A stretch of 63,996 bases of DNA, filler included, from Perkinsus olseni (lineage: Eukaryota), in assembly GCA_013115125.1 (NCBI GenBank). It is 3 parts of 3 records of this genome, joined end to end, with 100 filler letters (N's around TTAATTAATTAA, not from the genome) between each part and the next. Parts side by side here need not be neighbours in the genome. Positions count along the whole stretch, not along the records: positions 44,798 to 63,996 come from JABANN010000602.1; 2 more parts are not named here. The stretch is one strand, 5' to 3'. This document shows, one piece after another, positions 44,482-63,930 of this stretch (position 1 is the first letter of the stretch; each line of letters starts with the position of its first letter). The notes under the pieces are model-generated. The model was not told where the DNA came from and did no database searches. It saw only the letters and a program-made list of their open reading frames with translations. A program made the translations under genes and the position numbers.

Positions 44482-44555
44482 TACTCTAGGCGGGACTTGA
44501 ACCCGCAACCTTTGGATTAGAAGTCCAACGCTCTATCCGATTGAGCCACCAGAGC
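44482..44555 (-). tRNA. tRNA-Arg(TCT)
   Basis: GCTCTGGTGGCTCAATCGGATAGAGCGTTGGACTTCTAATCCAAAGGTTGCGGGTTCAAGTCCCGCCTAGAGTA folds as a cloverleaf with anticodon TCT and intact A and B boxes. Confidence 0.95.
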
Positions 44556-44697: not shown

Positions 44698-44797
44698 NNN
44701 NNNNNNNNNNNNNNNNNNNNNNNNNNNNNNNNNNNNNNNNNTTAATTAATTAANNNNNNNNNNNNNNNNNNNNNNNNNNNNNNNNNNNNNNNNNNNN
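44698..44797. other. Scaffold gap with artificial linker
   Basis: Same N-TTAATTAATTAA-N layout as 22321-22420. Confidence 0.95.
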
Positions 44798-45234
44798 TGA
44801 GAAGGCCTACAATAGGCTCTCAGCAGAAAAAACGCTCTGAGAGACAGGAAGCTCGAAATGCTCATAGAGGGATTCTATTTACACCGTCTCTGACGGTGAG
44901 AGTCCCTCCAGTCATGACGAAAACCTAGCAGGCATTGACCGACAAACTAGTCGTTTGTTGCAACGAAGAAGATTTACCGACTGATCGGTAACAGCGACGT
45001 TGCGTTCAGGAAGCAGTCTCAAGTGATAAGCAGTGAAAAGGAAACACGAAGCAGATTCAAAAAACACAGGACCACAGCACAACGCAACAAATTAAACAAG
45101 AGAAGCACTCATGACCGAAAAAATACAACCAGGGTGTCGAACAAGGACAACAACCTACGGTGGTCCACTTTTCCAACTATTCTGCGGGATAATATTATCC
45201 GAAAACGGAACTTTCCCAACCCAGTTGAGAATGA

Positions 45235-48200
45235 CTAGCAGAAATCACAACGGGGTTCAACACACGTTGACAAAGTACATTTACCCGCGCATCCACCTTC
45301 TCGCCTCATAGCTCTCCGGATCCCTGCCGCGATACTTGGTGAGGTTTGATCTGGTATAGCGATCCACACCACACTGTATGTCATAAGGCAGACCACCGAG
45401 AGATAGAGAAGGCCCGATCCCAGCGTGATGGCGTCCACCGATACTGCGTAAAAAGGTTCCTTACCTGCTCTGAGGAGGTTGTCTGGCGAAAGATCAGAGA
45501 TCCCCGCCCCTGACAGCCCCGGCAGTATCCTCCACTCTCGCTTGGCATTCTTCAGCTGACAGGTGACACACACTGCAAGCTCGTCATTCGCGAGTCTCCT
45601 CAGCGATGGCGCAAAGAAACCAAATTCTATTGCTCTTTCAACACTCGCATTTCGACTCGCATGCCGCAACTTCCTGTGTGCACTGCGAATGAGTAGACGC
45701 TTGAAGGCCATGCGCTTCTTTGGTACATAGTACGCCCAGCTGGTGGATCCATTAGCACTATTCACCAGATATCGCGCTATGCCAGCGTCGTCAATCCTGA
45801 TGCATGCCAGCGACCTGAGTGCCTTCGCATCCATTCCTTCCGCCCATCCCATCTGTAGAGACCGGGCGAAGGACGCTTTGTCTTCCTCCAGATATGTGTC
45901 TGGATACTGTAACTCGGCTGTGGGAAGGTCACCTGTGCTTTGCTTCCACCAGGTGAAAGCGAAACGCAGCGCCTTCCACGCATTTAATGCGGCATTCACA
46001 TCATACGATCTCAGTGATAACTCGTCCGCTAGACTCGGACTTCCAGTGTGCTTCCGGTATTCCGACGATACTTCATCTGGTATATAGCATAGTCGATCCT
46101 CTAACTCGTCCGGATAGCTCGGTATCTCTCCTATCCGAGATATTATATCGTCGATGACCGTTGCTACTTTGAGTGGTTCATCAAGATGCTCCTGTAGCAC
46201 ACGTCCTATCTGAATACCGTTGGCGCACCTGCGCTCCAGTAGACGTGACAAAGAGTCCGCTCGAGTATTCAGAGAGCCTTGAAGATGTGTGATGTCGACC
46301 GTTACATCACAACTATTTCTTATGAAACTAATTTCCGCTTTAATGGCATCAGCGAGCCTAACGATCGATCTCAATTCCAGCGCCTTGCAAGGGGGATTCT
46401 CATTGCACCAGCGGATCGAAGCGAAATTGTCCCCTTTGATCGATAGCCTACACGTGCCTTGTGTGCCGAGTCTGTGGTGTGAGCCCCTCCAATAATCTAG
46501 AAGCCTCGCTGTTCGGCTCACCCCCTCAAACATGGCTCGTAACTCTCTCCTATTTGAATGCCACGCCGCCTCCCTATTGGTCCACCTACCGGCCGCTCCC
46601 AAAATCTCAAAGCACTTTCCTTCCGCCTCCGAACAAAATTCCGCTACTCCCTCTTGCCTGGTCGCCCAAAGACTGAAACCCCAACCTAGTAGTGATGAAT
46701 CCGTTTCCAAAGTTAAAAAGATGCTCTCGCTTTCCAACCGTAGAGACGATGCATGTACACACTCCTGCGCAGGCTTCTTCTCTGATATCCATTTCCCGAT
46801 CTCCTCGAAGGCTGTCCTAACCCCATCCCCAAAATTATCGATCGTGAATGGTCGATCCCACGTCCAACTACTGAACGTCTTTCCTACTATAGCCCTAAGT
46901 ACATCTCCTATCAGCCTCAAAGTCGGATGGCCTTGGACACTATCATGGGCCAGGACCCCCGCACATGCGAATGTACTGCTTTTCGTCCAAGTCGTGGAGT
47001 TCAAAAACTCCGCAACCGCCGACCACCTCTGTGCCAATCTACAGTCCAATAGCATCCTCTCCTGCTCCATACAGACTCCTACTCCCAGCAAGGTACCCTC
47101 TGTGCTCAGCGGAACCACAACACCATATCCCTCACAGTACTGACGGAACTGCTCCTCGTTACCCGGCCTTACTACTGCCCACAACTTGTCGCACTGCGCC
47201 ACAAACCCCAGGATCCTCAGTATTGCAAATAGGAGAGCGAACGCCCGGACTATCCCCTCTACCTCAGCTTCCTGAATGACTATGTCATCCATGTAGTAAA
47301 GAATGAACAGTAATATCTGTTCCTCCGACAGTCCCTTCATCAGCTCTAACATGGTCATGATTATCTCCTTCACGGCTCCTTGTAGACAACCCGCTCCAAA
47401 GTGTAGCCCAAATACTACTCTATCCGACACAAACTCACCGATGGCTGTGGCCAGCAGCACCCATCGATCCACGAGTCTACATCTGTAGTATGCTTTTTGA
47501 AGATCCGCCACGATCAAGTCTCCTCCATTCAACCGTACTGCTATCAGAACATCCGATGTTGCTCTCCGTGACGACGACACTCCTCCCAGGCTCTGATTGA
47601 CCCCTCGACAATCTAGGACCAAACGCGGCTTCTTTTCCAGCTGCGCGAGAAAGATGGGGGATGCCGGTAAGCATTCCTTTCCTTCAGGATGCCCTTCTAC
47701 CTGCAACTCCGATTTCTTGACCCACCATCCTCGGTCTACAAATTCCTGCACCAGCTTCCTGTACACCGCTCTGTGCGCTTCCTCCAGCTTACTGTATGCT
47801 GCTCGCTCATATCTCGGTATACGCAGTTCTGTCGTCTCCTCGTCACCTTTCTTAGGGAGATCAATAAACACCGCAACCTCCTGTCCTTCACAGTCCCTTT
47901 GGCTGTGCTCCTCTAATCTTCTAAAAGACAGCCTATAGTCCGGAAGACCCTCAACCACCAGCTCTCCTTTGTCCACGAGTGTCGCGATCACTTTCCTGGC
48001 GACTTCCTGTTCTTGTCGTGGAAGTACTGGATATATCACCTTACCCTCTTCCTGAGGTGATGGTTGAGTTCCTACTCCTCGTCCTCCTCCTGGTTTGTCG
48101 ATGTATCTCATTACACTATCATGTACGTATCTTATCACATCAATGGCCTCTGCCGAGTCGTCCTCCACTTGTCTCCTCTCAGCGCAGAGTCCCCTCCTCG

Positions 48201-48771
48201 ACCGTGATACCGTGCCCGTTGCCAGGTCCAACTGCAAACCCACTCTACTGCCAATATCTCTGCCTATCAACAAGCCGACCTTATCTTCTACTTGCTCTGA
48301 GTACAACACCCGGACCATGTGAGGCCCTGCAGTTATCGCCTCTCCTTCGAGCCACAGAGTAAGGTATACTTCGGCCTCCTCAGTGATAGCCGTTCGACTT
48401 CCGTCTGCTAATTTCGCCCACTTGGCAACTCTTGTAGTTGGTATGCATTTCCTCGCCCCCTGATCTTTCGGCAAACATAGGTATGTACGTCCGGCCCCTG
48501 GGTCTATCGTGCCCTTCACTCCTTGAATTCTATACTTAGGATCTACAGCACTGACTACATCCGTTCTAACCTGTAATTCCACCGGTACTTCTAAATAGAT
48601 CAAACAAACCTTATCTTCTACTTCCTCACGAGCTACTCCTTTCTCCTCCTCTCTACTACACGAATTAAGGCCACCGTTCCCTTGGCGGCTCTCCTCATGT
48701 GATGTGGAGAAAGATGAATCTTCGGCCGAGATGCGCTCCCCACGAGTCACATCCGGCCCTTGTCGTTTCCC
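45235..48771 (-). CDS. pol: pol: aspartic protease, reverse transcriptase, RNase H, integrase (C-terminally truncated)
   Basis: Protease IDPGAGRT...LLIGRD; RT PRLVLDCRGVN, DLQKAYY, FGL, YMDD; RNase H TDSSLLGWG, HSNRRELRA, GDN, NTRADSLSR; integrase H-x4-H...CVTC and PFYAVSVD. The frame stays open upstream into the slippery site. Confidence 0.9.
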   Translation of the reverse strand, partial: GKRQGPDVTRGERISAEDSSFSTSHEESRQGNGGLNSCSREEEKGVAREEVEDKVCLIYLEVPVELQVRTDVVSAVDPKYRIQGVKGTIDPGAGRTYLCLPKDQGARKCIPTTRVAKWAKLADGSRTAITEEAEVYLTLWLEGEAITAGPHMVRVLYSEQVEDKVGLLIGRDIGSRVGLQLDLATGTVSRSRRGLCAERRQVEDDSAEAIDVIRYVHDSVMRYIDKPGGGRGVGTQPSPQEEGKVIYPVLPRQEQEVARKVIATLVDKGELVVEGLPDYRLSFRRLEEHSQRDCEGQEVAVFIDLPKKGDEETTELRIPRYERAAYSKLEEAHRAVYRKLVQEFVDRGWWVKKSELQVEGHPEGKECLPASPIFLAQLEKKPRLVLDCRGVNQSLGGVSSSRRATSDVLIAVRLNGGDLIVADLQKAYYRCRLVDRWVLLATAIGEFVSDRVVFGLHFGAGCLQGAVKEIIMTMLELMKGLSEEQILLFILYYMDDIVIQEAEVEGIVRAFALLFAILRILGFVAQCDKLWAVVRPGNEEQFRQYCEGYGVVVPLSTEGTLLGVGVCMEQERMLLDCRLAQRWSAVAEFLNSTTWTKSSTFACAGVLAHDSVQGHPTLRLIGDVLRAIVGKTFSSWTWDRPFTIDNFGDGVRTAFEEIGKWISEKKPAQECVHASSLRLESESIFLTLETDSSLLGWGFSLWATRQEGVAEFCSEAEGKCFEILGAAGRWTNREAAWHSNRRELRAMFEGVSRTARLLDYWRGSHHRLGTQGTCRLSIKGDNFASIRWCNENPPCKALELRSIVRLADAIKAEISFIRNSCDVTVDITHLQGSLNTRADSLSRLLERRCANGIQIGRVLQEHLDEPLKVATVIDDIISRIGEIPSYPDELEDRLCYIPDEVSSEYRKHTGSPSLADELSLRSYDVNAALNAWKALRFAFTWWKQSTGDLPTAELQYPDTYLEEDKASFARSLQMGWAEGMDAKALRSLACIRIDDAGIARYLVNSANGSTSWAYYVPKKRMAFKRLLIRSAHRKLRHASRNASVERAIEFGFFAPSLRRLANDELAVCVTCQLKNAKREWRILPGLSGAGISDLSPDNLLRAGKEPFYAVSVDAITLGSGLLYLSVVCLMTYSVVWIAIPDQTSPSIAAGIRRAMRREGGCAGKCTLSTCVEPRCDFC
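48704..48771 (-). promoter_or_regulatory. Programmed -1 ribosomal frameshift signal (G GGA AAC plus stem-loop/pseudoknot)
   Basis: The heptamer is in the correct phase in ORF1 and a -1 shift enters the pol frame. After a 6-nt spacer, stem GGCCG-GATGTG pairs with CGCATC-T-CGGCC, and loop GTGGGGAG can pair with downstream TTCTCCAC. Confidence 0.8.
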
Positions 48772-50582
48772 TGATCCTTGAAAGCAAAAGGCCTGACCCT
48801 GAACTTCTCCTTTAGTTGAGCGTCCTCACCCACCTTCGCTATCACTGCTTTGCCCTTGGCCTCGTCGTTATATCCCACAACAGCCCCTACGACCCTACCA
48901 AACCGTTGGTCCTGCCCTTTCCCTTTGCTGCGCAGAGGCTTCCAGTCATCTGGCTGGAAAGTCGATTTGATCTCCTGCTCATCAAGCTGTCGGACAGTGA
49001 CAACGAAAGAAGCTTTGAATCCCCTCGCCCACGACTCCAAGGACTGCTTTGGTGGTCTTGTCGAAGATGCTGCGCCCTTTCCTGGTGGTGCACCGCCGGT
49101 CCCAGAAACCTGCGAGTTCGTCGTCTGAGCTACCCAGGCCACCCTATCTGCCTCCCTCCGCGATGTGTCCTCCGCTGTTCGACTGACGTCCCGGATGATA
49201 TCCACTACTGTGATATCCCCGCCGCCTCCCTGCACCTCCGGGGAGAAAGACAGAAGTGTCTCCCAGTCCTCCTCGCCCACGTCCCTGTACGACCCCCGCT
49301 GCAACCGTGCTTCCCGTTTCACCTCCGATATGACCCTCTCTGCAATACCACTCGGCAATGTGTCTACTATCCCTCTGATGACCCTCCACGTTTCACTGTT
49401 GTCCCTGTACGCCGTGGCACAACGAAGAACAATGGACTCGGCCGCATCCAGGAACTGATCTACCTTCCCTGGACCCCCATAGCTGAGCTTTGCTAGGGAC
49501 TCCCTAATGTTGCTAATTATTGCCGATCTTTTACAGAATCTACACCGAAGCTGTTCCTTGACCCTCTCCCAACAGTATCTAGACCTCTGAGCGGCCCTCT
49601 TAGCGCAGTCCCTAACTGCGCCCGACGGGAGAGTTGTCAGCAACTTGCCAACACAGGCCATCCTGATGTCCTCACGCAAGACGAAAGTAAGCTGCCCCTC
49701 ATTCCCTTTTACATAGCTACCAGCTCCGGACTCCTCCAAAATGCCTTCTACTACCTCAAGGTGAGAGTCGAGGTCGAGGACATCCTCACACTCCGGCAAC
49801 GCTAACTTCGATACCCCTTGCGTGTTGATTCCCGACCTGACCCCCCTTCGTGTGTTCTCCCTCTGGCCCACACCCGCGTGCTCCCTAGCCTTATGTGTGT
49901 GACTCCGTGGCACTGGCATTTCAGCTAACGATCTAGGGGACGCCTTCACGACTACTACGCTAGCGCGCTGATCCTCCCCCTTACCTGGGACTGTCCTTGA
50001 GTCTCTCGTTTTATCCTTGTCCTCGTGCTCGTCGTCGTTTGCTTTCTGCTTGTCCTCGTGCTCGTCGTCCGACTGATTGGCTCCTCCATCTGATGCCAGC
50101 GATAGGTAACCTTCTGAGGTAGAGGTACCACCCCGAATACGGTCAGTAACCGAGAAAACAGACTTCGACGAACTGGAACGATACTGTTCCTTGCCTATCT
50201 TGGAAACGACTTCCTGCCGGAGCTGTTGAAGCTCCGCAATGTCCTGCTCTGCTCGTCGGAGCTGGTCGTGAAGTAGGCTCTCTTTCGTTTCCAATGCCTG
50301 CAGCTCGTCCGTAGTCTTCTGGCCCTCCGGTACTATGATACATTCCATAGCCGCCTGGACCTCTTGTATCTTGCCACGTAATCTGCCTCGTAGGACTCTC
50401 CTCTTCGTGAGCTCTTTCTTGTATGACTCCTCATCCTTTAGTAGTGCTCCCATGACACTGTCATCCGTGTCAGACTTGCCGTCCACATCCTCATTCTTGG
50501 GAGTTGGGTCGTCACCAGCTGTCACCATGTTGGGTTTGACCGACTCGTCGGTCTTGGACGGATCGTCAACGCGACTACTCAT
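48747..50582 (-). CDS. gag: gag-like ORF1
   Basis: 611-aa intronless ORF upstream of pol, with an N-terminal coiled coil and a capsid-like WERVKEQLRCRF segment. Confidence 0.75.
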   Translation of the reverse strand: MSSRVDDPSKTDESVKPNMVTAGDDPTPKNEDVDGKSDTDDSVMGALLKDEESYKKELTKRRVLRGRLRGKIQEVQAAMECIIVPEGQKTTDELQALETKESLLHDQLRRAEQDIAELQQLRQEVVSKIGKEQYRSSSSKSVFSVTDRIRGGTSTSEGYLSLASDGGANQSDDEHEDKQKANDDEHEDKDKTRDSRTVPGKGEDQRASVVVVKASPRSLAEMPVPRSHTHKAREHAGVGQRENTRRGVRSGINTQGVSKLALPECEDVLDLDSHLEVVEGILEESGAGSYVKGNEGQLTFVLREDIRMACVGKLLTTLPSGAVRDCAKRAAQRSRYCWERVKEQLRCRFCKRSAIISNIRESLAKLSYGGPGKVDQFLDAAESIVLRCATAYRDNSETWRVIRGIVDTLPSGIAERVISEVKREARLQRGSYRDVGEEDWETLLSFSPEVQGGGGDITVVDIIRDVSRTAEDTSRREADRVAWVAQTTNSQVSGTGGAPPGKGAASSTRPPKQSLESWARGFKASFVVTVRQLDEQEIKSTFQPDDWKPLRSKGKGQDQRFGRVVGAVVGYNDEAKGKAVIAKVGEDAQLKEKFRVRPFAFKDQGNDKGRM

Positions 50583-50610
50583 GAAGAGGGGAGAGCAAAA
50601 ACAGAATACA

Positions 50611-50632
50611 CTTGAGCCAAGATGGCTACGGT
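50611..50632 (-). other. Complete Perkinsus-type spliced-leader exon sequence (22 nt)
   Basis: The minus strand reads ACCGTAGCCATCTTGGCTCAAG and is followed by TGTATT, not by the GT donor of an SL RNA gene. Confidence 0.9.
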
Positions 50633-50894
50633 CCGCATTGCATGCTCCTAACTAATTAGCTACAATGGGAACTCAATCATATACTCTTAACATAATAGAT
50701 ATACTTCTCATGCTGGATCTCCTTGGAGCTTTTCGCGCACGCCCAAAAATAGCCTCATCATTCGGTGCCGCGACATAAGCGGAGCGAACCGTTGCACCAA
50801 TACAAGGCGGGCGAAGGTAACACCAGTTCCTTCCACATACGCTGTGAAGCCGCCAACTGCGCAAGATCTTTGTAGAGGTTGAGCCTTCCTGAAA

Positions 50895-53200
50895 ATGGCT
50901 GAGGCTCCCGCTAACACAACAGTCGAGTGGCTTCGAGATTATATCGTCCAGTGCATGCAGAGCCCTTCGTGGACGGTGGGAGGAGAGACGGTCGCGACAG
51001 GCTGAGTGGCAGGCTAAAGTCAGATACCTTTGGGCGAATTTATTGACGAGCACTGCATGAAGTTCGAAGATACTCCTGAGAATAAGCTAGAATACACTCA
51101 AATTCACAGTCAGTTCCGAGATCTGGTGGATAGACTGTTGGAGGAACATCTGGCGGAGCTCAGTAAGTTGTACCCGACTGCTGTTACATTCAGTGTCTCG
51201 GTAGGTATCAACAGAGATCTCTTCGCCCAGGTCTTTTTGGATGCGGTAGACGAGGACGATGACTGTGGGATAGTCCTTCGGAGGTACGAAAAATGCGGCC
51301 TCTACAAGAGTCTTTTGAGCATGTCTTTGGCACGGCGAAGTTATACTGACATAATGATGGAATGCTCGAGCGCTGGCGACAAAGGCGTATCAGCAATAAT
51401 CTGGGCAGTGCGGCGACGTTAGGGGGAGTGCAGCTCTGAGAACACGTCTTCTTAACGCCCACTGCTTCCCGTATGCTCGATGTTCTTGGCAGGCTGATAG
51501 CGTCTGAAGACTTCCTTCACTTCAAGGAGTTGATGTTGAGTCGAAGACGAGAGCTTGAACAGGGAGGTTCGGGTAGTGCTATGCCGTGGAGTACTGCTTC
51601 TTCCATGGAAGCCCTTCAGGAGTCCATCAAGGAATAACAGCGAGTACACCAGACGAACATTCTGCTAGGTGAGCCGTGCCCACAGTAATTTTCGATGTTA
51701 TATCGATATTATAAAGTATCATTATTATGCTAATCTAGTATTATTAGGTTTAATGATATATAGAATGTCATATCAGCTTATGTACACTATTGATGCCCTG
51801 TACTATTGATATGAACCATATTGCTAATCAGTGATATATTGTTCTATGAATTAAGGAAACTATTTTGGCACTTACCTGGCGAGCGGACTATCAGTGACTG
51901 CCGTGGAGTGGCTCATTAGTACTCGCGACGCTACGATGGGAGGCATAGTCTCGACTTCTGCTCTTCTTCACAGTGAAAATGATGACGGAGATGGCGCTGA
52001 CGACGAGGAAGACCAACTGCTCCAAGAAGCATTACGGGAGAGCCTTCGGCTGGCGGATCAAGAAGAGGGTAGACGGGGTCTATTACTAATAGGCTATGAG
52101 GCGCTGCGTCGTTGCTTGCGGTCCGGCAAAGGCAACCATTAAATACCAAATACAACAGATCCAATCGACCTTGTCTAAAAATTGAAGAACTTAGGGGGTG
52201 AGGCATTCATAATTCGATCAGTGGCATCTAATAGCTCGGGCCCTGCTGAGGGCGCTTCAGAGTTTTGCCGGAACTGCAACTCTTGAGTCTGTTAGATAAG
52301 TTGATTTTCTCGTGGCGCTGTGAAGGGAGAGAGTATAACCAAAGCGAATACTGATTGTGCGTCTACATCCAATGCTCCTCTTTTCATCAGGTTTGCACAC
52401 ATCGGAAGAACAGGAGATCCAACGAGCTATCGAATTAAGCTTGTTGGAGCACCAAAATAACACTATCGAGGATGGTAACGAGAGAAGCCCATTACCACCC
52501 CTCAAAGAAGTCCGGTCCAAGCGTGTAGTTCCTCCGGACCCTGGGGGTGACAGTAAGAGATTAGACGCCGGCGCCTTGCGATGATCGCTCGTGAAGGTAA
52601 TTTTCCGGCGTCCATCGAGCCCGATAGGAACGTGGTAGACGATGCATCTGAAGTGGAGCCCACGAATGACAGTGGAACACTCAGCCGCGGAAGGCCGACA
52701 AAAGAGGAGATCGAAGGTGGGATGAGTATAGCCGCTACTCGTGGCTCATGGGGATTCTCGATTCTGTTGAGTGCCTCTTTCGTGTCGACTGCCAATATTC
52801 TGTTATGCGGTGCAAGTGATACTCCATCGACTTTTGACCTCAGCCCGGGCGGAGCATCTGCGACGGCAACGAGAGCTCTTTAACGCCAGGATGGCGAGCG
52901 ACGGCCAGAGGTATGGACTACAGCGACGAAGTTGTTCTACTCGAACACTAGGCAGCAATTCATGGCAGGCATGATCGGTCGATACCAAACGTCGTTGATG
53001 CATCAGTTGCCGAGACTCATTCATCTCCGCCAAACGGCATAGGGGAGAACGCGGAAGTATTCATTCGCTCGGGTTTTGGTTCTGCGCTGTCGCGACGTAC
53101 GTTTCGAAGTCAGGCCGACGATGATGGTATGAGAGGCTCAGACTTCCGCAAGCAACTGACGTCGAGCCTTATGAAAGCGCGGAGTCGCCAAGGAGAGTGA
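50895..53200 (+). CDS. CFAP36: CFAP36/CCDC104-like protein (ARL2-binding BART domain plus UIM-like motifs)
   Basis: SPSW, FIDEHCMKFEDTPENKLEYTQIHSQFRDLVDRLLEEHLAEL; UIM-like EEDQLLQEALRESL and EEQEIQRAIELSL; C-terminal PTKEEIE/ARAEHLRRQRE. Confidence 0.75.
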
Positions 53201-53364
53201 CGATTCATCATGTTCTTAATTATGTTTTTGGGTCCTTAACGAACGAGCCATTGAGTACATCGTTCGTGTGGGACGGGTTGTACTTATCTTTGATTCCAGT
53301 CGGGTGACTGTAGATCCTGTTTCGCGATGTCCGCCGGTCATTGGAGTAGCTCCTTCGGGAGATC

Positions 53365-53927
53365 TCACAAGGGTGAGAGCTTCGCTTTCATCTCGACGGC
53401 AGCTCTAATACTCTCGACGGTTGCTTCAGGTGTCACGGCAACTGAGGGAGAAATAGAATCGAGTTGGGCAGCTCTACTGGTACGATTGCTCTGTTGCGTA
53501 TAAAGTACTGGAACCGAGAATCGAACTCGGGACCTACTGCGTGTTAGGCAGTCGTCATAACCAACTACACCATTCCAGCGAGCAGTGACTAGTGTGGTCA
53601 GGCTGTGCATTTTCTCCGCCCGAGTATACCAGCGGTGAAGCTCTTCTGTCTTTAGGCCTCTGAGGAAGAGTCCAATCGGGTCAGAGAGACACAACGTGAG
53701 TGCCTAATAGAGTAACCCAGATGACTGAGGGAGTGCCAGCGTCGATGCAGGTTGGTGTACTCGTCACCGCCATAAGAAAGGAAAGAGGATTCCTGCCGTC
53801 CCAGCACATCGAAGATCGTGTCCTCAGCTGATATCACAGCCGCTGGTATGTACAGTTCGCTCACTTCTTCCGGGGGCTTTGCGATTCCGTCTTGCGAGAA
53901 GACCCATTCCGGCGTGAACTCTGCCAT
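53365..53927 (-). CDS. Hypothetical spliced protein hosting tRNA-Val
   Basis: ATG at 53927 (MAEFTPEWVFSQDGIAKPPEE) followed by a GTGAG donor and further open frames on both sides of the tRNA. No family recognised. Confidence 0.4.
53506..53579 (-). tRNA. tRNA-Val(AAC)
   Basis: GCTGGAATGGTGTAGTTGGTTATGACGACTGCCTAACACGCAGTAGGTCCCGAGTTCGATTCTCGGTTCCAGTA folds as a cloverleaf with anticodon AAC. Confidence 0.93.
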
Positions 53928-54142
53928 TGGCCTCTAACTCTCATCAGAATGCAGCTGCTGACGACAGGCGATGTAGTGTGAAGGCAGACTTCCAGCAACG
54001 GGGTACCCTGAAAGCCGTGTGGAGGCGGAAGTTGTTTGCCCATGATATCGAGGAACCACCGGTAACAATATTTATCACGTTCTTCGCCTGCGGGCCGAAA
54101 CTCACAGCTCGGGTTTTTTAGTCGTGGGAAGCGACAACCGCG

Positions 54143-57100
54143 GTGGAAAAGGACCGATGGGACCCTCAGCCCTTCCGATTACCCCGGTTAGAAACCCTGA
54201 GGGCCACTCTCCCTCGCGAACTTGCGAGCACCGATCAGGGCTACCCAAACTCTGTGAGTCTCTCCTTCTCTCTGCTGTCTGATGTTGGCGGTAGGTACTG
54301 GGATACTATAAATCGGTTAAGAAACAGGGAGATGAGGTGGTCGAAGCAGCCGCTAGGAATCCTGATGTGAGAGCACCATTGGTGTAATGAGGAATGTGTT
54401 TCCCAAGATACTCCGAGCTGTTCGCACAGTCGATGAGAGTGTGGCCAATCTACAACAGCTATTGCGGATGGAGACTGCTCCTGGCCTCCCTCAAGCCCCC
54501 GATAGATCACTTACCAAAGGCCTTCCTATGACATTACAAACATACATTCACACTCGCATGGGGTGATGCTAGCTGTCAAGTGAACATCGTGTTGGGTTCA
54601 TATTGGTGTCAATGTCAACACAAGGGCGGGGTCCCTGCTTCAGCCACATCTGCCCTCTGTCGTCGCGGCCCAGTAATAAACACATGTCACCGGCAATCGT
54701 AGATGAGGAAAAGGTGCTGCTCGAGGCTTTGGGGCGAAGAAGGGTATTCCAAGAGTGCCCTGAAAAATGCAGCCCGGATGAGGCACTCCAACGCGCTGCC
54801 GATATAATTGTGATACCAGTTATTCGATGTTCGGAGATCGGTGGCTCATTCAGGACCGCGAAAATGAGCGTATTACCTTAGAGTGGGAGCAACTCATACG
54901 TGAACCCGCCCTCCTTACCAGAGAGAGGCTGGCTTCGGAATGCGACAGACTGATGGGCGAGGCCTGCGTCGTCATTGAATTTGTTTTCCAACGGTACGAG
55001 CTAGCCTCCGTCGCACCTCGACCGAGCGACAATGGATGCGGCTTTTCATTGCATGCCACCTCATCTCAGAGCTGTACCATCTCCCAGCCTTCGAGATAGC
55101 CTCCATCTTGGTGTATTGGCAGCATCGGCTATCGTGTGTCGCATCGCTACCTCCTCCTACGAACGCTCTGCGCCCTGTGTCGCGGTCAGACATCTAGCAT
55201 ACACAATACGGGCAGTGGAAGCATGTATACCATTGAGGGATACCAAGTGATGATGGATATTATACGATAGGGCCAACATCACTCAGAACCTCGGCATTCA
55301 CTGTAGATACATCTTCTGGCTAGTACAACTGTATAGCCTCCTGTGCGCTTGTGTGGAGGCAAGCCTCCAGGACGGCGGGGCTCAGGAATGTTATCAGAAT
55401 GCATTGAAAGTGGCCAAGGAGGGAATTGAAAGCATCAGTAAACATCCTTGGCGGGGCGCGGCTCAGGCAGTTGGTTATCAGGTCTACTCCAGAAATTGGA
55501 GAATATGGCCCCGCCGGTCCCTGAGGATCGCCAGCGACTTATCAATGAGGCGCTGTTCATCGTGAAAGGCCTCCGAGCTAAGTACCTTTCTAAGCGGATA
55601 TCTCCGATGAATGATTGATCGATTGGCAAGATATGAGTTCTGGACGAACAGCCTTCTGAGCGGGAGTATCAACCCTGACTGCTGCTCGGATTTACAAGCA
55701 CATTGCGGTATTGACGATGGCGATAACCCCGCTCCTGTGAGAAGCACAAGCGTTAGGGTTGGTAGACTGTTTTCGCAGTAGATTTCCACAATCGACTTGC
55801 TTTTGGAAGTGCTCAAAGTTCCATCGTCGCTACTGACACCCAATGACTCGGAGAGGCGGGAAGGTACATCTGCTTGTTAGAAGAGGTTGAAACTGCTCTC
55901 TCCGGATACTAGATACTACTGATGGTGAAGACGCGGAGCGAGAGACAGACTTACTGCAAAGGCTGAGAGTTGAGTTTTTGAGACAGGTTGGTAAACTCAT
56001 CTGAGCATTACCATATCCATAGCATAAAGATTCTTCCTCCTGAAGGTTATAGATTATGCGTCGGTTCCTCTTGGCGTGATAGCTGATGTTTGCAAGGAAT
56101 ACGAAGAATTGATAAGCTCCAAGGTGAGATACTCGTGAGTGACTCTTTACATGAGCCTCACTTGGAGGGCTTGTCATCTGTGCAGGCCATTGGTACTGAA
56201 GATTCCGCAAGCGCTGAGGATGAAGGGCAGCCCAAAAATGCCGAAGGCAGCAGTAAAAGGAGCGAGGCGGTAGTTGCGTTATTCACCATTGTATCTCATC
56301 ATACTCACCACGACTGGCTGGCAACAATGGTGAAAGACTTCATCGCTCAGGCAGCCGCGGCCGCCGCGCTATCTATCGGTGCTCACGCCAGCCTCTTAGA
56401 GTTGACCTTCCGACTGCAGCTCCAAGATAAGTTCGATGAACTGTTGGAAGTGTTCAACCAGAGGCTCAAAGTACGAAACGGTTTCTCCTATGACGCGATG
56501 GTGCGCCAAGGCGCTACCTCAGTATCGTCACCTCATCGATCCACCGCTAGTCGCTGTCGACTCTCTAGTGACTCGAGGAGAAGAGAAGCCGGTCCCTCCT
56601 GCAGGATGGACTATCCTTACTGGAGACCTCAACAGGTCTGCTTATCACAGTGTGCCTCTCTATACCGCCTATGGCGCATCGTGTGTGGTGCACTCTCGCT
56701 CATTGTCCCAGACTTGGCTGTTCAGTGCATCATTTAGGTTCTCCACCAAGTGGAAACTTGGCTCTCTTGAAGTCAAGAAAACTGCTGCGGGAGAAGTAGT
56801 GAAGTGGGAGAGTGGGCAGCGAATGCAGTAAACTCATCATGGGAGTCCTCAGAACTTTTTGCAACTTGAACCCCTACCCACCGATAAAGAGTCTTCACCC
56901 TCGAACGAGACACCGGTTCATGTGTACTTAATCGGCCAGTACCTCAACCTTTGGGAGCTCGATAATCCGGAGCCCGGCGAAGGTGAGTTCGCATACTGCA
57001 GTGTCTCTATCATGACCAATCGAACAGCACGAAAGCCTTTCCGCCCGGCCGTGGGTCGGATATCCTGGTATGGCCTGCCTATTATGAACATCATACCTTA

Positions 57101-59103
57101 CAGGTTCAATACGTCGGATATGCAACGTGGGACTTGTATTCAGTCGAGAGGCACCAATGGATAGCAATGGTGTTCTCACGGAGCAGAAGGAAATACACTA
57201 CCTCACAGGCGGTAAGGTCGTTCCCCACAATGGATACTTATGCTCCTACGCAGCCGTCTACACAATCATATAAATTTACAACGTCACGGTTAAACAGTAT
57301 ATCATTGCCTGTCTATGAGAGTGCTATGCTGCATTTGATATTATGAAATCTGTAATCGGATCTGAGCCATGTAGGCGAGAGCGAGAAACAACTGGACAGA
57401 ACTATCCTAGGCAACAAAACTGGTCCGGAGCGGTAGACATGTTTCCTGCGCGTGCTGTTCTATGGTTTTCAAGATACTTCGTCGGAGAGGACTGCTTCGG
57501 CGGCTCTGCGTTTTCATTGCTTGCCTCTGCCGATTGACCTCGCCTCGGCTGAGGAAGTAAGTTCCACTCATCCGCTGGTTCAGTGTGAAGATTCCCCTCG
57601 ATGGTCTTAGCATAAAATCGTATCGGCCGTTGATATATCGAAACCGTACCTCTTCGCCACTCTCAGAATGAGCTAGCACCTTTCCTCATCTATTCCACGT
57701 ATGATGAGCCGTCTTGTGCGCTGGGTAGAGGACCTAGCCTCCATGCTCTCGACGATCTCGAGCTTACCACGAGCCCAATATGGGCACTCACTGACTTCTC
57801 AACTGGTTCGTTGCCCTCCCCCGAAGCTTCAGCAGACTCTTCCGGCCAGTCATGGTAAGAGGAATGCTTAGTGCGATAAGTTTCTTTGTAAGCGTCACAT
57901 GTTGTTCAGGTGTCAGATGAACAGCATAATAAGAGTTGATTTGAGGATGAGCGCCGCCGAGCACGTCAACTCGCCATTCCACCACCCAATCTACCTCGGT
58001 GCACGAATTGATCTCGATTGCGCGGTAGTTCAGTACAGGCGTGTTCGTCTTCTGAGCCTCGTGGGGACTGTGGACGCACACCCTGAGCAGCTCCCGATGG
58101 CTACAATCCAGCTGGCACGGCTCTTGGAGGGTGATTGCGGTGATGCTCTGATAGATTTTCATGAGCAGCTCGTGCTGGATGCTGCCATGTTACTCTGGCA
58201 TCGGCATTGCGCTCCGCACCTCCAGGATCTGAAAATGCAGGGATCTCGAACCTACGAGCAAACCAGTATCGGAATTCCTTTGTTGACAAGACTAGTTCAA
58301 GTTCTCTGTGCCTTACCGAGAAGATTGGATGATATTGCGTCAACGGTGGCGGAGATATGTCTCAGAATCGACCAGCTTGCTCCCGAGCATCAAGTATCCA
58401 CGTCCAGAAAGTGCTACAGTGCTTTGCGCGGAGCTTATGATATTCTCGCTTGGAACAGCGGACGAAGGAGCATTGAGGCCCAGCTGCATCGGGAAGTTTG
58501 AGAATTCGCATGAGGACGAGTGCGTGTGAGCTTCGTCCGAACGGCAATATTGAGTTGCATTGATGAGGGCCTGGCCAATTTGATGGGTGCTGGGATATGG
58601 CCATCCGCTGACAACGCTTGCGTGTCAGTGATGCGTGATGTGCGCGAGTGTCAGGAGTTGCATGATAAGACGCGGGTTAACTTTGAGCATCCTATCCCAG
58701 CTTACTCGTTGTGCAGCGCCGTGAGAATAAAGATACGCAGCTCGGATTCTTCGAGTTCTTGTTTCTACCCCAGACGCTCTCTTGGGGCATCCAGAACAGA
58801 ACGGCCTAGTAATGACTAGGATGTAGTAACTACTGGTCACTCCTCTTCTTTAGAGTGATGCATAATAATAGCTGCTGACCATTGTGGTTGATGGACAAAA
58901 CTGATCACCAGGATGGTCATTTGGTAGGTCGTAGGACAGTGCGGAAATGCTCGATACAAAAGAGGATGCGGCGTGCCGCACGCCGCGTGGGCGAGAATGC
59001 TCATCGCTCTCTGGGTGACCCAGGCTGGGCCTCCATAGTGATTATTCGACACGCGCTCGACAACTCAAGTCTCGTAGAGGAAGATGAGATTCACCGGTAT
59101 TGA
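54143..59103 (+). CDS. CFAP54-like cilia/flagella protein, partial or interrupted
   Basis: Exon string AVEACIPLRDTK/YIFWLVQLYSLLCACVE..ALKVAKEGIESI/LLQKLENMAPPVP resembles my recollection of the CFAP54 N-terminal domain; later LDAAMLLWHRHC. Boundaries are uncertain. Confidence 0.5.
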
Positions 59104-60633
59104 GACCCGAACACTATTAGAGCGCACAATTCTGACGATAGAGCGCTTTATAGGTCATCCCCGGAACGATTCACTACGTCTCTAATCTCTACAAGCGTCT
59201 AGGTCAGCGACGCACGTCAACTTGCTGGAATGGCCTAGACTAGACCGTTACGTAGCTGTTGCAGGTTAATACTATTCCGGGCCGGAATTTCCGGCCTCTA
59301 TTCAATCGATAGAGAAGAAGCCAGACTGAAACCCCAGGGCAATCAAAGTTTGTTTGATTCGAATGGAACCCAAACCAAGTTAGTGAAATCCCAAAGGAAT
59401 TCAATGAAGTCCGAACCTAATTCTCGAGGCCTACAAGTAATTTAGTCGGCACATAAAACGCCTCCGGAGTCTGCCTTACCCGGGTCTGGCGTTTAAACTG
59501 CCAGGTGCTGCTTCTGGAATGTGTTAAAGAGATCGAGACCTTGAAACGTCATTTAAGAAACTTGTTCATAGGGGCCTCTATGTAAAAGGTTTTAAAATGA
59601 CGTCAAAACATCATACCCTCGTTGCGGGGCTGAGAGATATACGCAGCCGGAGCCTGAATTGGAATGCCTACAGAGGACGGGATACCATCAGAATTCTCCG
59701 AAGTGATCACTGGTATCGCCCAATTGCTATGTGCTGTAGGATGTACAGGTCCAGTACACAGGGTATCCCTTATCCTTAGCTACTGCTAGTAATGTATTGT
59801 TCTTTTTATTCCTTCTCCTGTTGGATGATATTTCCTCCAATAAGTTGCATACTAGTGTTGTATCAATGGTAAAGGGATCTGTGGACCACAGACTGTGGTG
59901 TCGACTGGCTCAAAGGGTGACCAGAAGCGAGCCGCTTCGGTATTGACAATACCGTATCGTAGAGAGGGTCATTAGATGATCTAATTAGATTCTAATTTAG
60001 ATCGCGGAGGTTAAACCTCCGAGGTTTTCGGCTTCGCGGTTGAGCCAACAGCCCTTCCGTTGCTGAACTGAGTTCATTGGTAACAACGTCTGCGTCACAT
60101 GCAATAGGTAGCGAGTGTTTGGCTCGCACCGTCATTCGAATTTCGAATTTCGAATTCGAATGCATTACATCATAAGCCGCGTTGGATTGCTATGGCGTCT
60201 TCTGGTGGCACAGTTTCTGGCACAAACTTGCTGGCGACAGATACCGAAGCACCCAAACCTCATCTATGATTTTTTTGTAAATGTGTGATCTAGTTGTATG
60301 ATTCTCCGAGAATCGACCTCGCCTGGGGTGCGAGAAGTCTCGAGATAGATTCTCGGCTCAGCCCACGATAAGTCATTTCCCTGCTGAGCACGGCCTATAT
60401 GGCAGACAGGCTTCTCAGACCGCGGAGGTTACCGGGACCACTGAATGAAATAGCTTATCAGCGCGCTGGAATGGTCCCAACATTATTAAATTCTTTGTAT
60501 GAGCGTTTCTATGATCTGCATACAGGGGGCGAGAAGAGCTTAGCCATCATCACACGTATGGCAGTGCAGCGGATGGAAGTTAAAAGATGAAGCCGAGAAG
60601 ACGGATAGGAGCTTCGGCTTACTCCTGTCCGGA

Positions 60634-62436
60634 ATGCGACGAGGCCGTAATGCGACGGAATGCGTCGGAATGCGTACGTACGGTAGCGACGAGGCCACGG
60701 TGGGTTTGGAAAGAGGGGTGCCGCAAGGCAGTGCCTTGGGCCCCTTCCTATTTCTGCTAAGCACCCTACCACTAGTCGATGCGTTCGCGGGTATGGAGGA
60801 GAAGGGCGTGCGCCTGACCCTCTATGCGGACGACACGACGGTAGTGGTGTCTGCCGGTACTGGCCCGTCGCTGGTGAAGAGGTGGCGGTCAGCAGAGGCT
60901 CTGCTTCTGGCTTGGGCTGCCAACGCGGGTGTGTCCTACGAGCCGGCCAAGAGCCAAGCGCTCCTGCCTAGGACCATCGGGGACAATATCCTGTCCCTTG
61001 ATGGAATACCCGTTGACATCGTCAAGGTTGTTCGGGTACTTGGTGTTTGGATCGATCACCGCCTATCGTTCCAACACCATATCAAGGTTAGATGTGCCGA
61101 AGCCAAAGCCAAGTTAGGCAGGCTGAGGCACTTGGGCTGGGCACGTGCTGGGATCACCGGAAAGAAAGTGATCAAAACCCACAAGGTGGCGATCGTTCCG
61201 GCCCTCAGTCACGCTGTCTCAGCATGGAAGGAAGGGCTGGAGTCAGCCACAGCAAAATCTGCCTTGCTGCAGGTTTCGGCTATGGTGGCGAGGATAGCCC
61301 TCCAGGCCCCACGGAGCAGCTCCAACGCGGCACTCTGTGTCGCGGCTGGCATCATGCCAGCAGACTTGGAGCTTGGTACCATCGCAGCCACCAGGCTCGC
61401 TGCACTTGGGTGTGCTAAGGCCCTAGACCAATCTCTCTCGGTCAAGGGCTTGACTCTCTTTGAGGGTCGCGATGGTGGTGATATGGTGCAGCGCTGGAGG
61501 GGTTTGCCCACTCAACCTTGGCACCCCTGGGTCACGACTACCATCTCGGAACGTGAGGAGGCCAAGAACTACGCGCTCGAGGCTCTCCAAACTAAGAATG
61601 CCATCTTCACGGATGGCTCGGTAGTCAAGAACGTCAAAACCGGCGCTGCTTTGGTCGTTTATCGTGAGGGCGTAGAGGTCTACTCCAATTTCTGGAAGCT
61701 CTCCCCTTACGCTACTATTACGGATTGCGAACTCCTAGGAGTTCTGGAAGCAGTCCGCTGGATTGTCTCGACAGCGGGTGACGAGGCCTGGGAGATCTTC
61801 ACGGACTCTCAGGCGGTACTCAAGATCCTGTCGTCCCGAGCATCCACGGCCCGGTGGGATAAGGCGAGACAGATCTATCTGTCATTGTCCGAAATCCCTG
61901 GTAGGGTATCCCTTCGATGGGTACCGGGGCACAGTTCCATCAGTGCCAACGAACGGGCCGATGAGCTGGCAGCCAAGGGTGCCTCCATGAGGGAAGTCTC
62001 TGCGGAGACGGAAATCAGTGTGAGGACTCTTCGGCGGTATCAAGGAGAAGCTGGCCGTCTGTCACTGCGCAAGTGGTGGTCAGACAAGAGAGCCAGCCTG
62101 GGCACTTCTGTCAACGACTTCTTTTACTGCGCTTCACACGCTCGTTTGTGGATCCGCGGGGAAGTCACGGCAGCTAGCAGTGCCGTTGTATTCGGAAGGG
62201 CCCCAACCCCAGCCCATCTCTATAGATGCGGGGTGGTCAACTCGCCAGAGTGTGACTGTGGGGCGCCGGTGGGGAACACGCGGCACTACCTCCTCTCCTG
62301 TCCGCTCCTGGAGCAGGCTAGGAATAGGGTCAAAGGTGGTGTCCCCTACCATTTATATAAACTAATTGTTGATTTGAAGCGACGCAAGTCCTTCAAGAAA
62401 GCATTCAGAAATTCTGAGGCCGTATGCGGATCCTGA
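60634..62436 (+). mobile_element. 5'-truncated non-LTR retrotransposon (LINE with RNase H and terminal Cys/His motif)
   Basis: RT GVPQGSALGP, YADD, LGVWID; RNase H FTDGS, E, FTDSQ, WVPGH, NERADE; C-terminal CDCG...HYLLSC. The upstream RT domains and the endonuclease are absent. Confidence 0.9.
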
Positions 62437-63818
62437 TGCTTGCAACACTAGTAGTGATTCACTACCCCTGGGTAAAATCACCCAATGATCCCGATGCGTG
62501 AGTAGAATCGGGCGGTGATGCTGAGTACGCAAGTCGGATTACATTACTCTGAGTAATATGCAAGATTCAAGATGCTGATTCCTGAGCTCTGAGAGAGAGT
62601 ATTGATTCACGATGGTGAATCAAACCCCCATGTCATGAACGATCTTAATCCGCGAATCACAGTGTGATTATCACACTAAATTTACACGAAAAACGCCCAG
62701 ATCCAGTACCGGGGGGTCCTCGCCGCGACCCTCATGGGGATGCTGATTCAGAACCCTGAGTAAAGTCTCGCAATCTTGAACTATCGTAATTTTCCATAGA
62801 ATTTGAAAGGTTAGGTCAAGTCGGAAAAGTTGGAAAAAAAGCTTGCACCAGTATTTAAAGTTCAAATTTTGAACCCGAGTCGAATTACTCGGGTTGTCAC
62901 GTAACGTGACTCACGTTGATGCGAGTGTGTAAGATGCTCCTAGGATAGAAGTTCTATCATAGAACCGGCGATCCCTCCGTGCATCGGAGTAGGTCGCTGA
63001 TTGCGATCAGGCCAGAATCGAAGTTCTCGATCATCCAAATCCAGTCGTTTCCGAGATGAATGGATTTTTTGGGCTGCGCTATCCACAAACGGAAGGAAAA
63101 ATAGATTTCTATTTTTCTTTCCCTTCGCAGGAAAAATAGGGAGGAATGAAAGAAAGAATGGAAATTTCAGCCACCAGTACAATAAGCCCCCGGGGCTTAT
63201 TGTAGTGCCGGGTAGGCACAACTTTTGGTTTTCCGCCTCTGTTTCGTACGAGGCCCACCATTGAATATTTGCTGGAAAAATATATATATAATAAATAGCA
63301 GCAGCTGGAGCAAGCGTCGGAGGACTGGCGACTGGGACGGTGACCGCGAGGATGAAGGAAGATGCAGATGAAGTCGGTCGAAGCCTTAGAGCAGGAAGAC
63401 GTGATGACTAATTCATGTATTGCTCGTTATTAAGGAACGTTTCAATCTGTCCGGAATGCAAGGCTCGCATAGTGACTTCCAAACCATGATAATGGAGCAA
63501 ATGTGTGTTATGGTTCGCCAACCGTTCATGACATGTTCTTGTTCCGGCGAGTGAGGAAGCTACTGGAAAGACTCGTTAGAGCCATTTGTCTGGCTAGAGA
63601 CACTTGCACAAACAAAAGACTTCCCGCGGGGATGAACATGGTTATCACGGATTACGACACGAAGAACCTTGCTCAACCCGACCTCTCTTGTTTCGCCTTC
63701 AACCACGTGTCGAAATTTCCGTCAGCGATGGGACAATACCAACTCCCTGACACTCCGTTGATTCGAGGTTTTCTATGCCCAGTGGTAGCTGTGCGTTCTT
63801 GCATGCAAGACATACAGC

Positions 63819-63884
63819 GCACCCTCTTAGCTTGGGCTTGTATCATACAAGCCCAAGCTAAGAGGGTGCATACAAGTTGTATGC
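63819..63884. repeat. Perfect palindrome (25-bp arms, C spacer) chained to a second one (8-bp arms, G spacer)
   Basis: GCACCCTCTTAGCTTGGGCTTGTAT-C-ATACAAGCCCAAGCTAAGAGGGTGC, then GCATACAA-G-TTGTATGC. Confidence 0.95.
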
Positions 63885-63920
63885 CCTCACTATCAGCATC
63901 CTCAACTTCATCCCTCTCCG

Positions 63921-63930
63921 CCCCCCCCCC

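Follow-up and report, generated by a model that had tools for sequence, protein, structure and literature searches.

The retroelement locus of Perkinsus olseni

The window analysed here is a stretch of 63,996 nt from Perkinsus olseni (assembly GCA_013115125.1), made of three joined parts, of which positions 44,798 to 63,996 come from JABANN010000602.1. On the minus strand of this last part lie two long open reading frames in the order gag-pol, preceded by a complete Perkinsus spliced leader (SL) that sits within a repeated unit of 248 nt. The features of the locus, in window coordinates, are as follows.

44698-44797: assembly linker (44 N, TTAATTAATTAA, 44 N); the 3' part of the element and its 3' LTR are not in the window
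44798-45287: high-copy non-coding repeat, with no long ORF, in place of the remaining integrase and the element 3' end
45235-48750, minus strand: ORF2 (pol), 1171 aa, with the order PR-RT-RNaseH-integrase
45544-45705, minus strand: HHCC zinc domain of the integrase (pol)
46693-46704, minus strand: RNase H motif TDSS (pol)
47284-47295, minus strand: RT motif YMDD (pol)
48490-48504, minus strand: protease motif DPGAG (pol)
48747-50582, minus strand: ORF1, 611 aa, uninterrupted, occupying the gag position, with codons 1-18 inside the candidate LTR
48765-48771, minus strand: slippery heptamer G_GGA_AAC, putative -1 frameshift site, 15 nt short of the gag stop, with an open pol frame across it
50515-50527, minus strand: putative primer-binding site (PBS), TGGTGACAGCTGG, directly after the candidate LTR; it encodes the M-V-T-A-G block of gag
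50528-50775, minus strand: candidate 5' LTR, 248 nt, TGTCGC...CCAACA, delimited by contigs of DNA runs, their depth and their loose ends
50528-50632, minus strand: proposed R-U5, 105 nt, from the first SL base (83 nt beyond the SL)
50583-50610, minus strand: leader of 28 nt between SL and gag ATG, homologous to the leader of published 'S-type SL-like' loci
50611-50632, minus strand: 22-nt L-type SL (PmaSL1), positions 144-165 of the candidate LTR and the proposed first bases of R
50633-50775, minus strand: proposed U3, 143 nt, GC 0.44, the part of the candidate LTR upstream of the SL
50776-50778, plus strand: TAA, candidate 3-bp target-site duplication adjoining the LTR (loose ends at 50527, 50778 and 50838/50840)

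The SL at 50611-50632 matches the 22-nt L-type leader with 0 mismatches and is identical to PmaSL1, the L-type SL (22 nt) that the available text of PMC3101222 gives for P. marinus. It occurs once in the window, where no other match is found even at up to 3 mismatches, and the chance expectation derived from 100 shuffles is 0.01 matches. A G directly precedes it, TG and not GT directly follows (the downstream sequence reads TGTATT), and 28 nt separate it from the gag ATG (50582-50580). The first-pass annotation, which described a full sense SL 28 nt before gag, preceded by G and without a following GT, was accurate in each of these details; one correction to it is that the feature lies on the minus strand. 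It also considered that the flank might belong to an SL RNA gene. The G|GTAG donor of the L-type SL RNA gene is not present after the SL, and when two L-type intron oligos were aligned with the downstream sequence, 213 and 281 of 300 shuffles scored equally well. The SL is genuine; with both the donor and the L-type intron missing, it does not belong to an SL RNA gene. An Rfam scan of 50300-51000 returned a sub-threshold snoRNA match and nothing else, and the folding of the 105 nt starting at the SL is unremarkable (z = -0.48). A metagenome scan for the SL end plus leader gave 7 loci, all attributable to chance as none of the 7 had the remaining SL upstream.

A spliced leader within a candidate LTR

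The SL had been described as standing in place of a 5' LTR, with no LTR or primer-binding site in sight. Neither statement is supported by a single alignment of contigs from public runs to the window (X1, X7, X8 and X10; loose ends of up to 30 letters), from which all the evidence for an LTR derives. In DNA run X1, a 179-nt unitig (50551-50729) has a depth of 303, compared with 115 for the 5299-nt contig of the element body and 83 for the flank; in DNA run X8, a 249-nt contig (50527-50775) has a depth of 52 compared with 18-20 for the body. The 248-nt unit is therefore about 2.6 times as deep as the body in both DNA runs. Contigs leave the window sequence at 50527/50528 (X1 with two contexts, X7 with one) and at 50775/50776 (X1 with two contigs, X8 with one), which gives the repeated unit sharp ends in three of the four runs aligned. 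At least two other sequence contexts downstream of the unit are not gag, and in other contexts the SL recurs at high identity along with the 143 nt that precede it. The unit has the termini TGT...ACA, with TGG directly after it. Since the repeated sequence covers 143 nt before the SL and 105 nt counted from its first base, the SL lies within an LTR-like unit and does not mark the end of a retrocopy.

Within the window, a repeat search (seed 14, minimum length 40) found no second copy of the unit and no LTR-type direct repeat, but two unrelated repeat families instead. Body, unit and flank are not joined in any one DNA contig; their contigs meet end to end and overlap by up to 30 nt. The segment 50778-50838 next to the unit is itself a repeat that is present elsewhere without the insertion. 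One contig joins a foreign flank ending in ...GCTTAA to the far end of the 248-nt unit, and in an RNA contig a near-identical flank (...GGCTTG) continues straight into the window sequence from position 50778 onward. Taken with ACA|TAA|GCGG in the window, these contigs point to an empty site plus a TAA duplication, so that the two loose-end contexts and the window together suggest a TAA on both sides of the insertion. Target-site duplications of LTR elements are usually 4-6 bp long, and the candidate, at 3 bp, is shorter. A 13-nt flank motif from reads had in the window only a match with 2 mismatches, which is at chance level.

The PBS-like TGGTGACAGCTGG did not match either of the two tRNAs in the window (7/18 and 9/18 positions). 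A G-rich, PPT-like context upstream of another copy of the unit comes from the consensus of two contigs that agree at only 0.57, and is weak. A bacterial promoter and terminator scan, whose models are not applicable to Perkinsus, gave 0 sites. On the strength of the contig evidence we consider the 248-nt unit to be a short LTR that carries the SL internally, at the expected U3/R border, with a probability of roughly 60%; the U3/R assignment and the PBS are putative.

Coding capacity and relationships of the element

The long uninterrupted ORFs reported at first reading are indeed both open, at 611 and 1171 aa. The first could not be assigned by its domains: no gag capsid or zinc-knuckle domain was recognised, with Pfam giving only MukE (E=0.0091, below its cut-off), comparison with solved structures (PDB) gave no relevant match, and the AlphaFold model (mean pLDDT 44) was too poor for a fold search. 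An alignment of the window protein with one P. olseni and two P. marinus paralogues (65-69% identity) is collinear and conserved across residue 18/19, which corresponds to the end of the 248-nt unit, in all four proteins. M19, T21, A22 and G23 are the same in all of them, with V or A at residue 20; the M-V-T-A-G codons over the PBS-like site form the most conserved block of the gag N-terminus. Residues 1-40 had 0 matches among shorter proteins in a word-indexed search, and no annotated short ORF was found that shares these residues and then diverges. Run X7 lacks 6 GT..AG introns of the neighbouring gene and is therefore RNA; in it, a 742-nt contig crosses the LTR/gag junction (49841-50580), and another contig ends at 50622, within the SL, with adapter after it.

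The pol product is highly divergent. Searched alone it gave only a weak Integrase_H2C2 match in Pfam and two matches in a word-indexed protein search, and IMG/VR scans with the window pol and with P0009 found 0 relatives. HMMER recovered 191 relatives at E<=1e-3; of the 10 looked up, 6 were named, and all 6 are from Perkinsus (two from P. chesapeaki, two plus one partial from P. marinus and one from P. olseni). A profile of 20 family members matches the PFV integrase (E=1.9e-23), a caulimovirus-type polyprotein (1.2e-21) and Ty3 Gag-Pol (8e-20), and also the MMLV and HIV RTs, and the family consensus contains DTGAG, F/YVDD, DAS, HHCC and D,D,E. These matches and the -1 slippery site bear out the original assignment to retroelements. 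The element shares with Ty3/gypsy LTR retrotransposons (Metaviridae-like, such as Ty3 and C. elegans Cer1) the order PR-RT-RNaseH-IN and the profile similarity to Ty3 Gag-Pol and to retroviral integrase, and the linkage of gag and pol by a -1 slippery site is a further likeness to elements of this type. It differs from them in being very divergent and in having an SL encoded inside its candidate LTR. We regard it as probably a divergent Ty3/gypsy-like LTR retrotransposon of Perkinsus, represented in the window by a 3'-truncated copy.

The first reading is to be corrected in that pol is not complete. Homology stops at residue 1155 (about 45286), past the zinc domain and the first D, so the D,D,E catalytic core, present in the family consensus, is incomplete in the window copy. 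The alignment ends at 45286-45295 for 6 of 6 family proteins that reach the integrase, and paralogue P0013 extends 319 aa beyond this point. The sequence that takes over is the high-copy repeat. Its depth is about 1900-2250, compared with 83 for the flank, loose ends fall at 45227 and 45287, and it reaches at least 450 nt further into the gap. What was first taken for a gap at 44698 is the assembly linker of N runs at 44698-44797. A recent insertion had been proposed from the unmutated SL and the long ORFs; the argument from the ORFs is weakened by the missing integrase core.

The SL before gag as a family trait

More than 100 genomic 'SL-like' loci have been described in P. marinus and considered to be non-functional SL-RNA-like sequences (PMC3101222, available text). 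Of six published oligos for 'S-type SL-like' loci, four (S-like-F3, S-like-F4, shortSL1 and shortSL2) align to the window leader, the ATG and the first codons, with only 0-4 of 300 shuffles scoring equally well; the other two (F1 and F2) match mainly the SL itself. Oligo shortSL2 encodes the M-S-T-S-R start of paralogues P0155 and P0156. The S-type loci targeted by these four oligos carry an SL-leader-ATG arrangement homologous to that of the window, which differs in having an L-type SL; the available text of PMC3101222 draws no connection to retroelements. According to the same text, most of the SL-like loci start with T and are tandem, so only some of them can be LTRs. The published loci were found by searching for the SL, and their intact SLs are therefore ascertained and not independent proof of maintenance.

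The conservation of the gag N-terminus across the LTR/body junction, combined with the alignment of the S-type oligos, indicates that the SL before gag is a family trait and not a one-off. Two origins had been offered for the arrangement. A single retrocopy is contradicted by an SL-leader-gag start conserved in other subfamilies. The best fit is the second, a family not yet described whose SL is linked to the 5' end of the element RNA or to strand transfer.

Alternative explanations

The 248-nt unit could be a 5' cassette of the family, composed of promoter, SL and leader, that spread by recombination or segmental duplication and whose extra copies are fragments. This would agree with the lack of a 3' copy in the window, the weak PPT evidence, a target-site duplication of only 3 bp and a PBS that is putative. 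We nevertheless consider it unlikely, as the family encodes a retroviral-type integrase, an enzyme whose substrates are LTR ends, the unit is bounded by TGT...ACA with TGG next to it, it occurs in at least two other, non-gag downstream contexts, an empty site is matched, and about 2.6 copies are present per body in two DNA runs. The LTR reading may also be combined with another origin of the SL, namely DNA-level capture of an SL RNA gene (promoter and exon), with U3 being the sequence upstream of the SL gene and serving as promoter. SL genes have exactly this build, with an SL exon at the transcription start. Uniform upstream regions are described for L-type SL RNA genes in the available text of PMC3101222. 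Against a capture, the G|GTAG donor is absent and what follows the SL bears no relation to the L-type intron; the capture would have had to stop exactly at the last exon base, and we see little chance of it.

The full sense SL just before gag, with a G preceding it, would also be produced by a one-off retrocopy of trans-spliced element RNA, with the SL forming the 5' end of an insert that lacks an LTR; dinoflagellates are known to carry relict SLs left by recycled mRNAs, and in the available text such relicts are also reported in P. marinus. This is improbable when the 143 nt before the SL are co-repeated with it, the boundary at 50775/6 recurs in two DNA runs, and the same SL-leader-gag start is found in other subfamilies. 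Insertion in or beside a functional SL RNA gene, in the manner of SLACS, CRE and NeSL in other phyla, would account for the conserved upstream sequence that flanks the SL. It is very improbable, for the published intron and donor are absent, the unit contains the gag start and first 18 codons, whose protein sequence is conserved across paralogues, and the element is of the integrase-bearing LTR type and not a non-LTR element. Finally, an artefact, either cDNA contamination or a chimeric join through a repeat, has to be weighed, as none of the short-read contigs extends over body, unit and flank together and the window is a scaffold with linkers. We give it hardly any credence: of the words sampled from 50300-50950, 93% are present in runs from two further studies, at both ends of the unit DNA contigs of X1 and X8 adjoin each other, contigs of X7 and X10 extend over the junction of gag and unit by 53 and 76 nt, and the flank contains introns and is therefore genomic DNA. 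The same data speak against the earlier concern that genomic reads might not support the junction.

Proposed replication cycle and comparison with known systems

An LTR element in a trans-splicing host has a problem, because SL addition removes the 5' R needed for reverse transcription. With the SL inside the LTR, the RNA of the Perkinsus element would start with the SL, either because transcription begins at its first base or because a longer precursor is trans-spliced at the AG ending the genomic SL, which would give the same sequence. The 3' LTR would contain the SL as well, making it part of the terminal redundancy (R), so that a trans-spliced RNA would still be able to make the first strand transfer and every new copy would regenerate U3-SL-R-U5 in both LTRs. 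Gag would begin 28 nt after the SL, still inside the LTR, with the PBS-like, TGG-initiated site next to the LTR. The routes by which the SL came into the LTR and is kept there are inferred. As a tentative extension, which we hold to be possible rather than probable, the SL may be the working core of R: genomic RNA would be trans-spliced at the AG ending the LTR-encoded SL, and the fresh SL would pair with the SL of the 3' LTR for first-strand transfer, so that the SL is rewritten in each cycle. Such rewriting would explain why subfamilies have an L-type or S-type SL before diverged leaders.

A gag ORF that starts inside the 5' LTR is found in yeast Ty1, where the PBS consequently lies within coding sequence, a layout resembling the one proposed for the window element; Ty1 is of the copia type, has a different domain order and lacks a spliced leader. 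Retroelements linked to SL sequence are likewise represented by SLACS, CRE, CZAR and NeSL, non-LTR retrotransposons that interrupt SL RNA genes. The window locus differs from these in having no SL RNA gene and a pol with a retroviral type of integrase. For Cer1, the available text of PMC3315495 states that SL1 is found only on a 2.4-kb spliced mRNA and is not trans-spliced to the full-length RNA of 8 kb; the solution of Cer1 is to leave its genomic RNA unspliced. Cer1 thus avoids the SL, whereas the Perkinsus family appears to have adopted it.

In the relict-SL retrogenes of dinoflagellates (the model of Slamovits and Keeling), as presented in the available text of PMC3229502, PMC3942190 and PMC6050394, the SL forms the 5' edge of a processed copy of a host gene, and SL relics are often truncated at an internal AG and then decay. 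Common to these retrogenes and the window is a genomic sense SL directly before coding sequence, and an origin by reverse transcription of trans-spliced RNA, as proposed for the retrogenes, is plausible here. The SL of the window differs in being full length, internal to a repeated terminal unit and part of the retroelement itself. No description of an SL inside an LTR was found in the literature searched, as far as the available article text goes (supplements and figures aside).

Concluding remarks

The arrangement described here suggests that the element family has made trans-splicing a part of its replication. A family encoding the SL at the start of R would represent a different and elegant solution to the loss of R and, if the tentative extension of the cycle is true, the first LTR retroelement lineage to depend on host SL trans-splicing for its replication. 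Under the LTR model, some of the more than 100 SL-like loci of P. marinus, so far puzzling, would receive a new explanation. As a natural promoter-plus-SL cassette, the unit is possibly useful for Perkinsus expression vectors. The available text of a 2018 perspective gives the type of element that mediates SL-mRNA recycling as unknown, and the family provides a concrete candidate for the source of reverse transcription behind this process. If the cycle operates in its extended form, the family would be a natural candidate engine for copying SL-capped host mRNAs into perkinsid, and perhaps dinoflagellate, genomes.

The Spliced Leader Copy and the gag-pol Element

The 22-nt spliced leader (SL) occurs once in the window, at 50611-50632 on the minus strand, with 0 mismatches; no other match was found there with up to 3 mismatches allowed (chance expectation 0.01 matches). 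It is identical to PmaSL1, the L-type SL of Perkinsus marinus, as given in section 6 of PMC3101222. Read on the minus strand, the SL has a G directly before it and TG after it, and an ATG at 50582 starts 28 nt past it, exactly as the first-pass annotation had placed a full SL relative to gag. This ATG opens the first of two overlapping frames:

48747-50582, minus strand: ORF1, in gag position, 611 aa
45235-48750, minus strand: ORF2, pol, 1171 aa, overlapping ORF1 in the -1 frame

Pfam gave no relevant match for ORF1 and Integrase_H2C2 alone for ORF2 (E=0.068). An exhaustive HMMER search retrieved 191 relatives at E<=1e-3; among the best 10, all 6 named ones come from Perkinsus (P. chesapeaki, P. 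marinus, P. olseni), and at least 3 of the 4 unnamed ones from metagenome collections. A 20-member family profile matched foamy-virus integrase (E=1.9e-23), a caulimovirus-type polyprotein (E=1.2e-21), Ty3 Gag-Pol (E=8e-20), and the MMLV and HIV RTs. The window pol carries, in this order, DPGAG, YMDD, TDSS and an HHCC zinc domain, and the heptamer G_GGA_AAC lies 15 nt ahead of the gag stop, with the pol frame open across it. The profile matches, the motif order and the -1 frameshift heptamer identify a divergent Ty3/gypsy-like gag-pol retroelement, which bears out the original call of a gag-pol element. ORF1 was assigned as gag from its position, the frameshift link and its conservation in the family; neither a solved-structure search nor a predicted model demonstrated a capsid fold.

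The window copy is not intact. Similarity to all family members reaching integrase ends at 45286-45295, while a pol paralogue, P0013, which shares 87% identity in the final 138 residues, continues for 319 residues further. At this breakpoint the reads show the onset of a non-coding repeat (44798-45287) at ~25x flank depth in the DNA run X1, leading into the assembly linker 44698-44797. Since similarity stops where the high-depth repeat cuts the integrase short, and this repeat continues to the linker, the integrase core and the 3' end of the element are absent from the window. In mode of action and in domain order the element is like a Ty3/gypsy LTR retrotransposon; the window copy lacks the integrase core, and an LTR pair is putative for it. 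A 763-nt contig carries the repeat at least 450 nt past the contig edge, and a second assembly linker lies at 22321-22420.

The Repeated Unit Around the SL

From a list of 13 sequencing runs, read contigs of four were compared with window 44798-52500. Run X7 is RNA, because its contig skips six introns of a plus-strand neighbour gene (50896-52400), which is transcribed divergently from the element. Features in the surroundings are as follows:

50975-51022, 51163-51204, 51282-51490, 51572-51618, 51667-51971, 52068-52389, plus strand: six GT..AG introns of the neighbour gene, removed in the X7 contig
44482-44555, minus strand: tRNA-Arg(TCT), flanking the element region
53505-53579, minus strand: tRNA-Val(AAC), flanking the element region
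9164-9349: coding-like repeat, 9-nt period, CCACC/GCC-rich
7692-7765 and 19703-19776: 74-nt direct repeat, 12 kb apart, 96% identity

Transposons of the Dada type that target tRNA genes are reported for P. marinus in PMC3706591.

In X1, the body of the element assembles into a single contig of 5299 nt (45258-50556, depth 115); the unique flank (50746-52500) has depth 83, and the 179-nt unitig with the SL (50551-50729) reaches 303. X8, a diverged DNA run, gives depth 52 for a contig of 249 nt (50527-50775) vs 18-20 for the body. Departures of contigs from the window sequence fall at 50527/50528, with two contexts in X1, one of which recurs in X7, and at 50775/50776, with two X1 contigs and one X8 contig. 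The repeated unit is therefore 50528-50775; 143 nt of it precede the SL, and 105 nt count from the first base of the SL onward. The SL had been read as the 5' end of a retrocopy, in place of a 5' LTR. This is contradicted by a repeat that continues 143 nt upstream, which likewise rules out a classic relict-SL retrocopy.

X8 has the same junction as the window in a copy that is broken. Its ORF substitutions are 18 synonymous and 18 non-synonymous among the 36 listed (139 further differences), with ~24% synonymous expected at random, which suggests past constraint followed by decay. In the diverged strain of X8, the same element copy is broken relative to the window by three changes (47055, 47461, 49533): an insertion of 14 nt, a W codon turned into a stop, and an insertion of 1 nt.

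The SL-Leader-gag Start as a Family Trait

The gag relatives comprise a P. olseni protein with 100% coverage of the window gag and a pair of P. marinus paralogues that are 65-69% identical to it. Nearer to the window gag is the P. olseni relative (P0003), which shows 94% identity in the columns aligned and an internal duplication of 26 residues. All four gag proteins begin M-(S)-[S/T/N]-S-R-V-[D/E]-[D/E]-P-S-K and are collinear over residue 18/19, which is the unit end; there an N-M-x-T-A-G block is invariant, and its codons form a sequence resembling a primer-binding site (PBS). Because the N-terminus is conserved and collinear across the unit end, the unit/body junction belongs to the element itself; it does not come from fusion to a host or SL gene.

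In P. marinus, more than 100 genomic SL copies lacking the intron were termed non-functional SL-RNA-like sequences in PMC3101222. Oligos for the "S-type SL-like" loci, from Table 1 of that paper, were aligned singly to the window. S-like-F3, S-like-F4, shortSL1 and shortSL2 match the window leader, ATG and first codons (0-4 of 300 shuffles as good), and shortSL2 encodes the M-S-T-S-R start of both P. marinus gag paralogues. The L1-like oligos did not match the window, nor did the two L-type intron oligos (213/300 and 281/300 shuffles as good). The element is not an SL RNA gene, nor is it an SL-gene-targeting non-LTR element. Evidently, 5' parts of this retroelement family that carry the SL account for some of the intron-less copies, although those loci were ascertained by SL search, and intact SLs with them. 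The SL-leader-gag start is thus a trait of the family.

The Unit as a Candidate LTR

We consider the unit to be a short LTR with a probability of about 0.6. On the element strand it runs TGTCGC...CCAACA, i.e., with TGT/ACA termini, and TGGTGACAGCTGG directly adjoins its end; LTRs are expected, since the family encodes integrase. The unit-to-body depth ratio of ~2.6 in both X1 and X8 is consistent with two LTRs in each element and additional solo copies. In one X1 contig, a foreign flank, ...GCTTAA, is attached to the far end of the unit; in an X7 contig, a flank almost identical to it, ...GGCTTG, continues straight into the window from 50778 onward; and the window junction is ...GCGACA/TAA/GCGG. 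Taken together, these are interpreted as a filled site whose TAA was duplicated, alongside an unfilled one in a different copy of the repeat around it. The 61 nt beside the candidate LTR (50778-50838; loose ends at 50778 and 50838/50840) occur at other places too, where the sequence to either side differs, so the element seems nested in an older repeat. Against the LTR reading, a repeat search found no second unit copy in the window, no single contig of the runs bridges all parts, the target duplication is 3 bp only, and the PBS-like site has no match among the two window tRNAs. Another upstream context is G-rich and resembles a polypurine tract; it comes from two contigs agreeing at only 0.57 and carries little weight.

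Proposed Replication Route

With a proposed U3 of 143 nt, the SL would fall at the expected U3/R border. Two routes would place the SL at the start of the element RNA and yield identical RNA: transcription could initiate there, or the RNA could be trans-spliced at the AG ending the encoded SL. One X7 RNA contig stops 10 nt into the SL, where adapter sequence begins, and a second one spans the LTR/gag junction; this agrees with, and does not prove, a transcript start near the SL. As this SL would also be present in the 3' LTR, trans-spliced RNA would retain terminal redundancy and could complete strand transfer, and the progeny would regain U3-SL-R-U5 at both ends. The SL could have entered the LTR by reverse transcription of trans-spliced RNA with imprecise strand transfer, or by capture from an SL gene.

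In the article text searched, no account of an LTR that contains an SL was found. The genomic RNA of Cer1 in C. elegans is reported in PMC3315495 to escape SL1 trans-splicing; whereas Cer1 avoids the SL, an LTR encoding it would represent the opposite strategy in this Perkinsus family.
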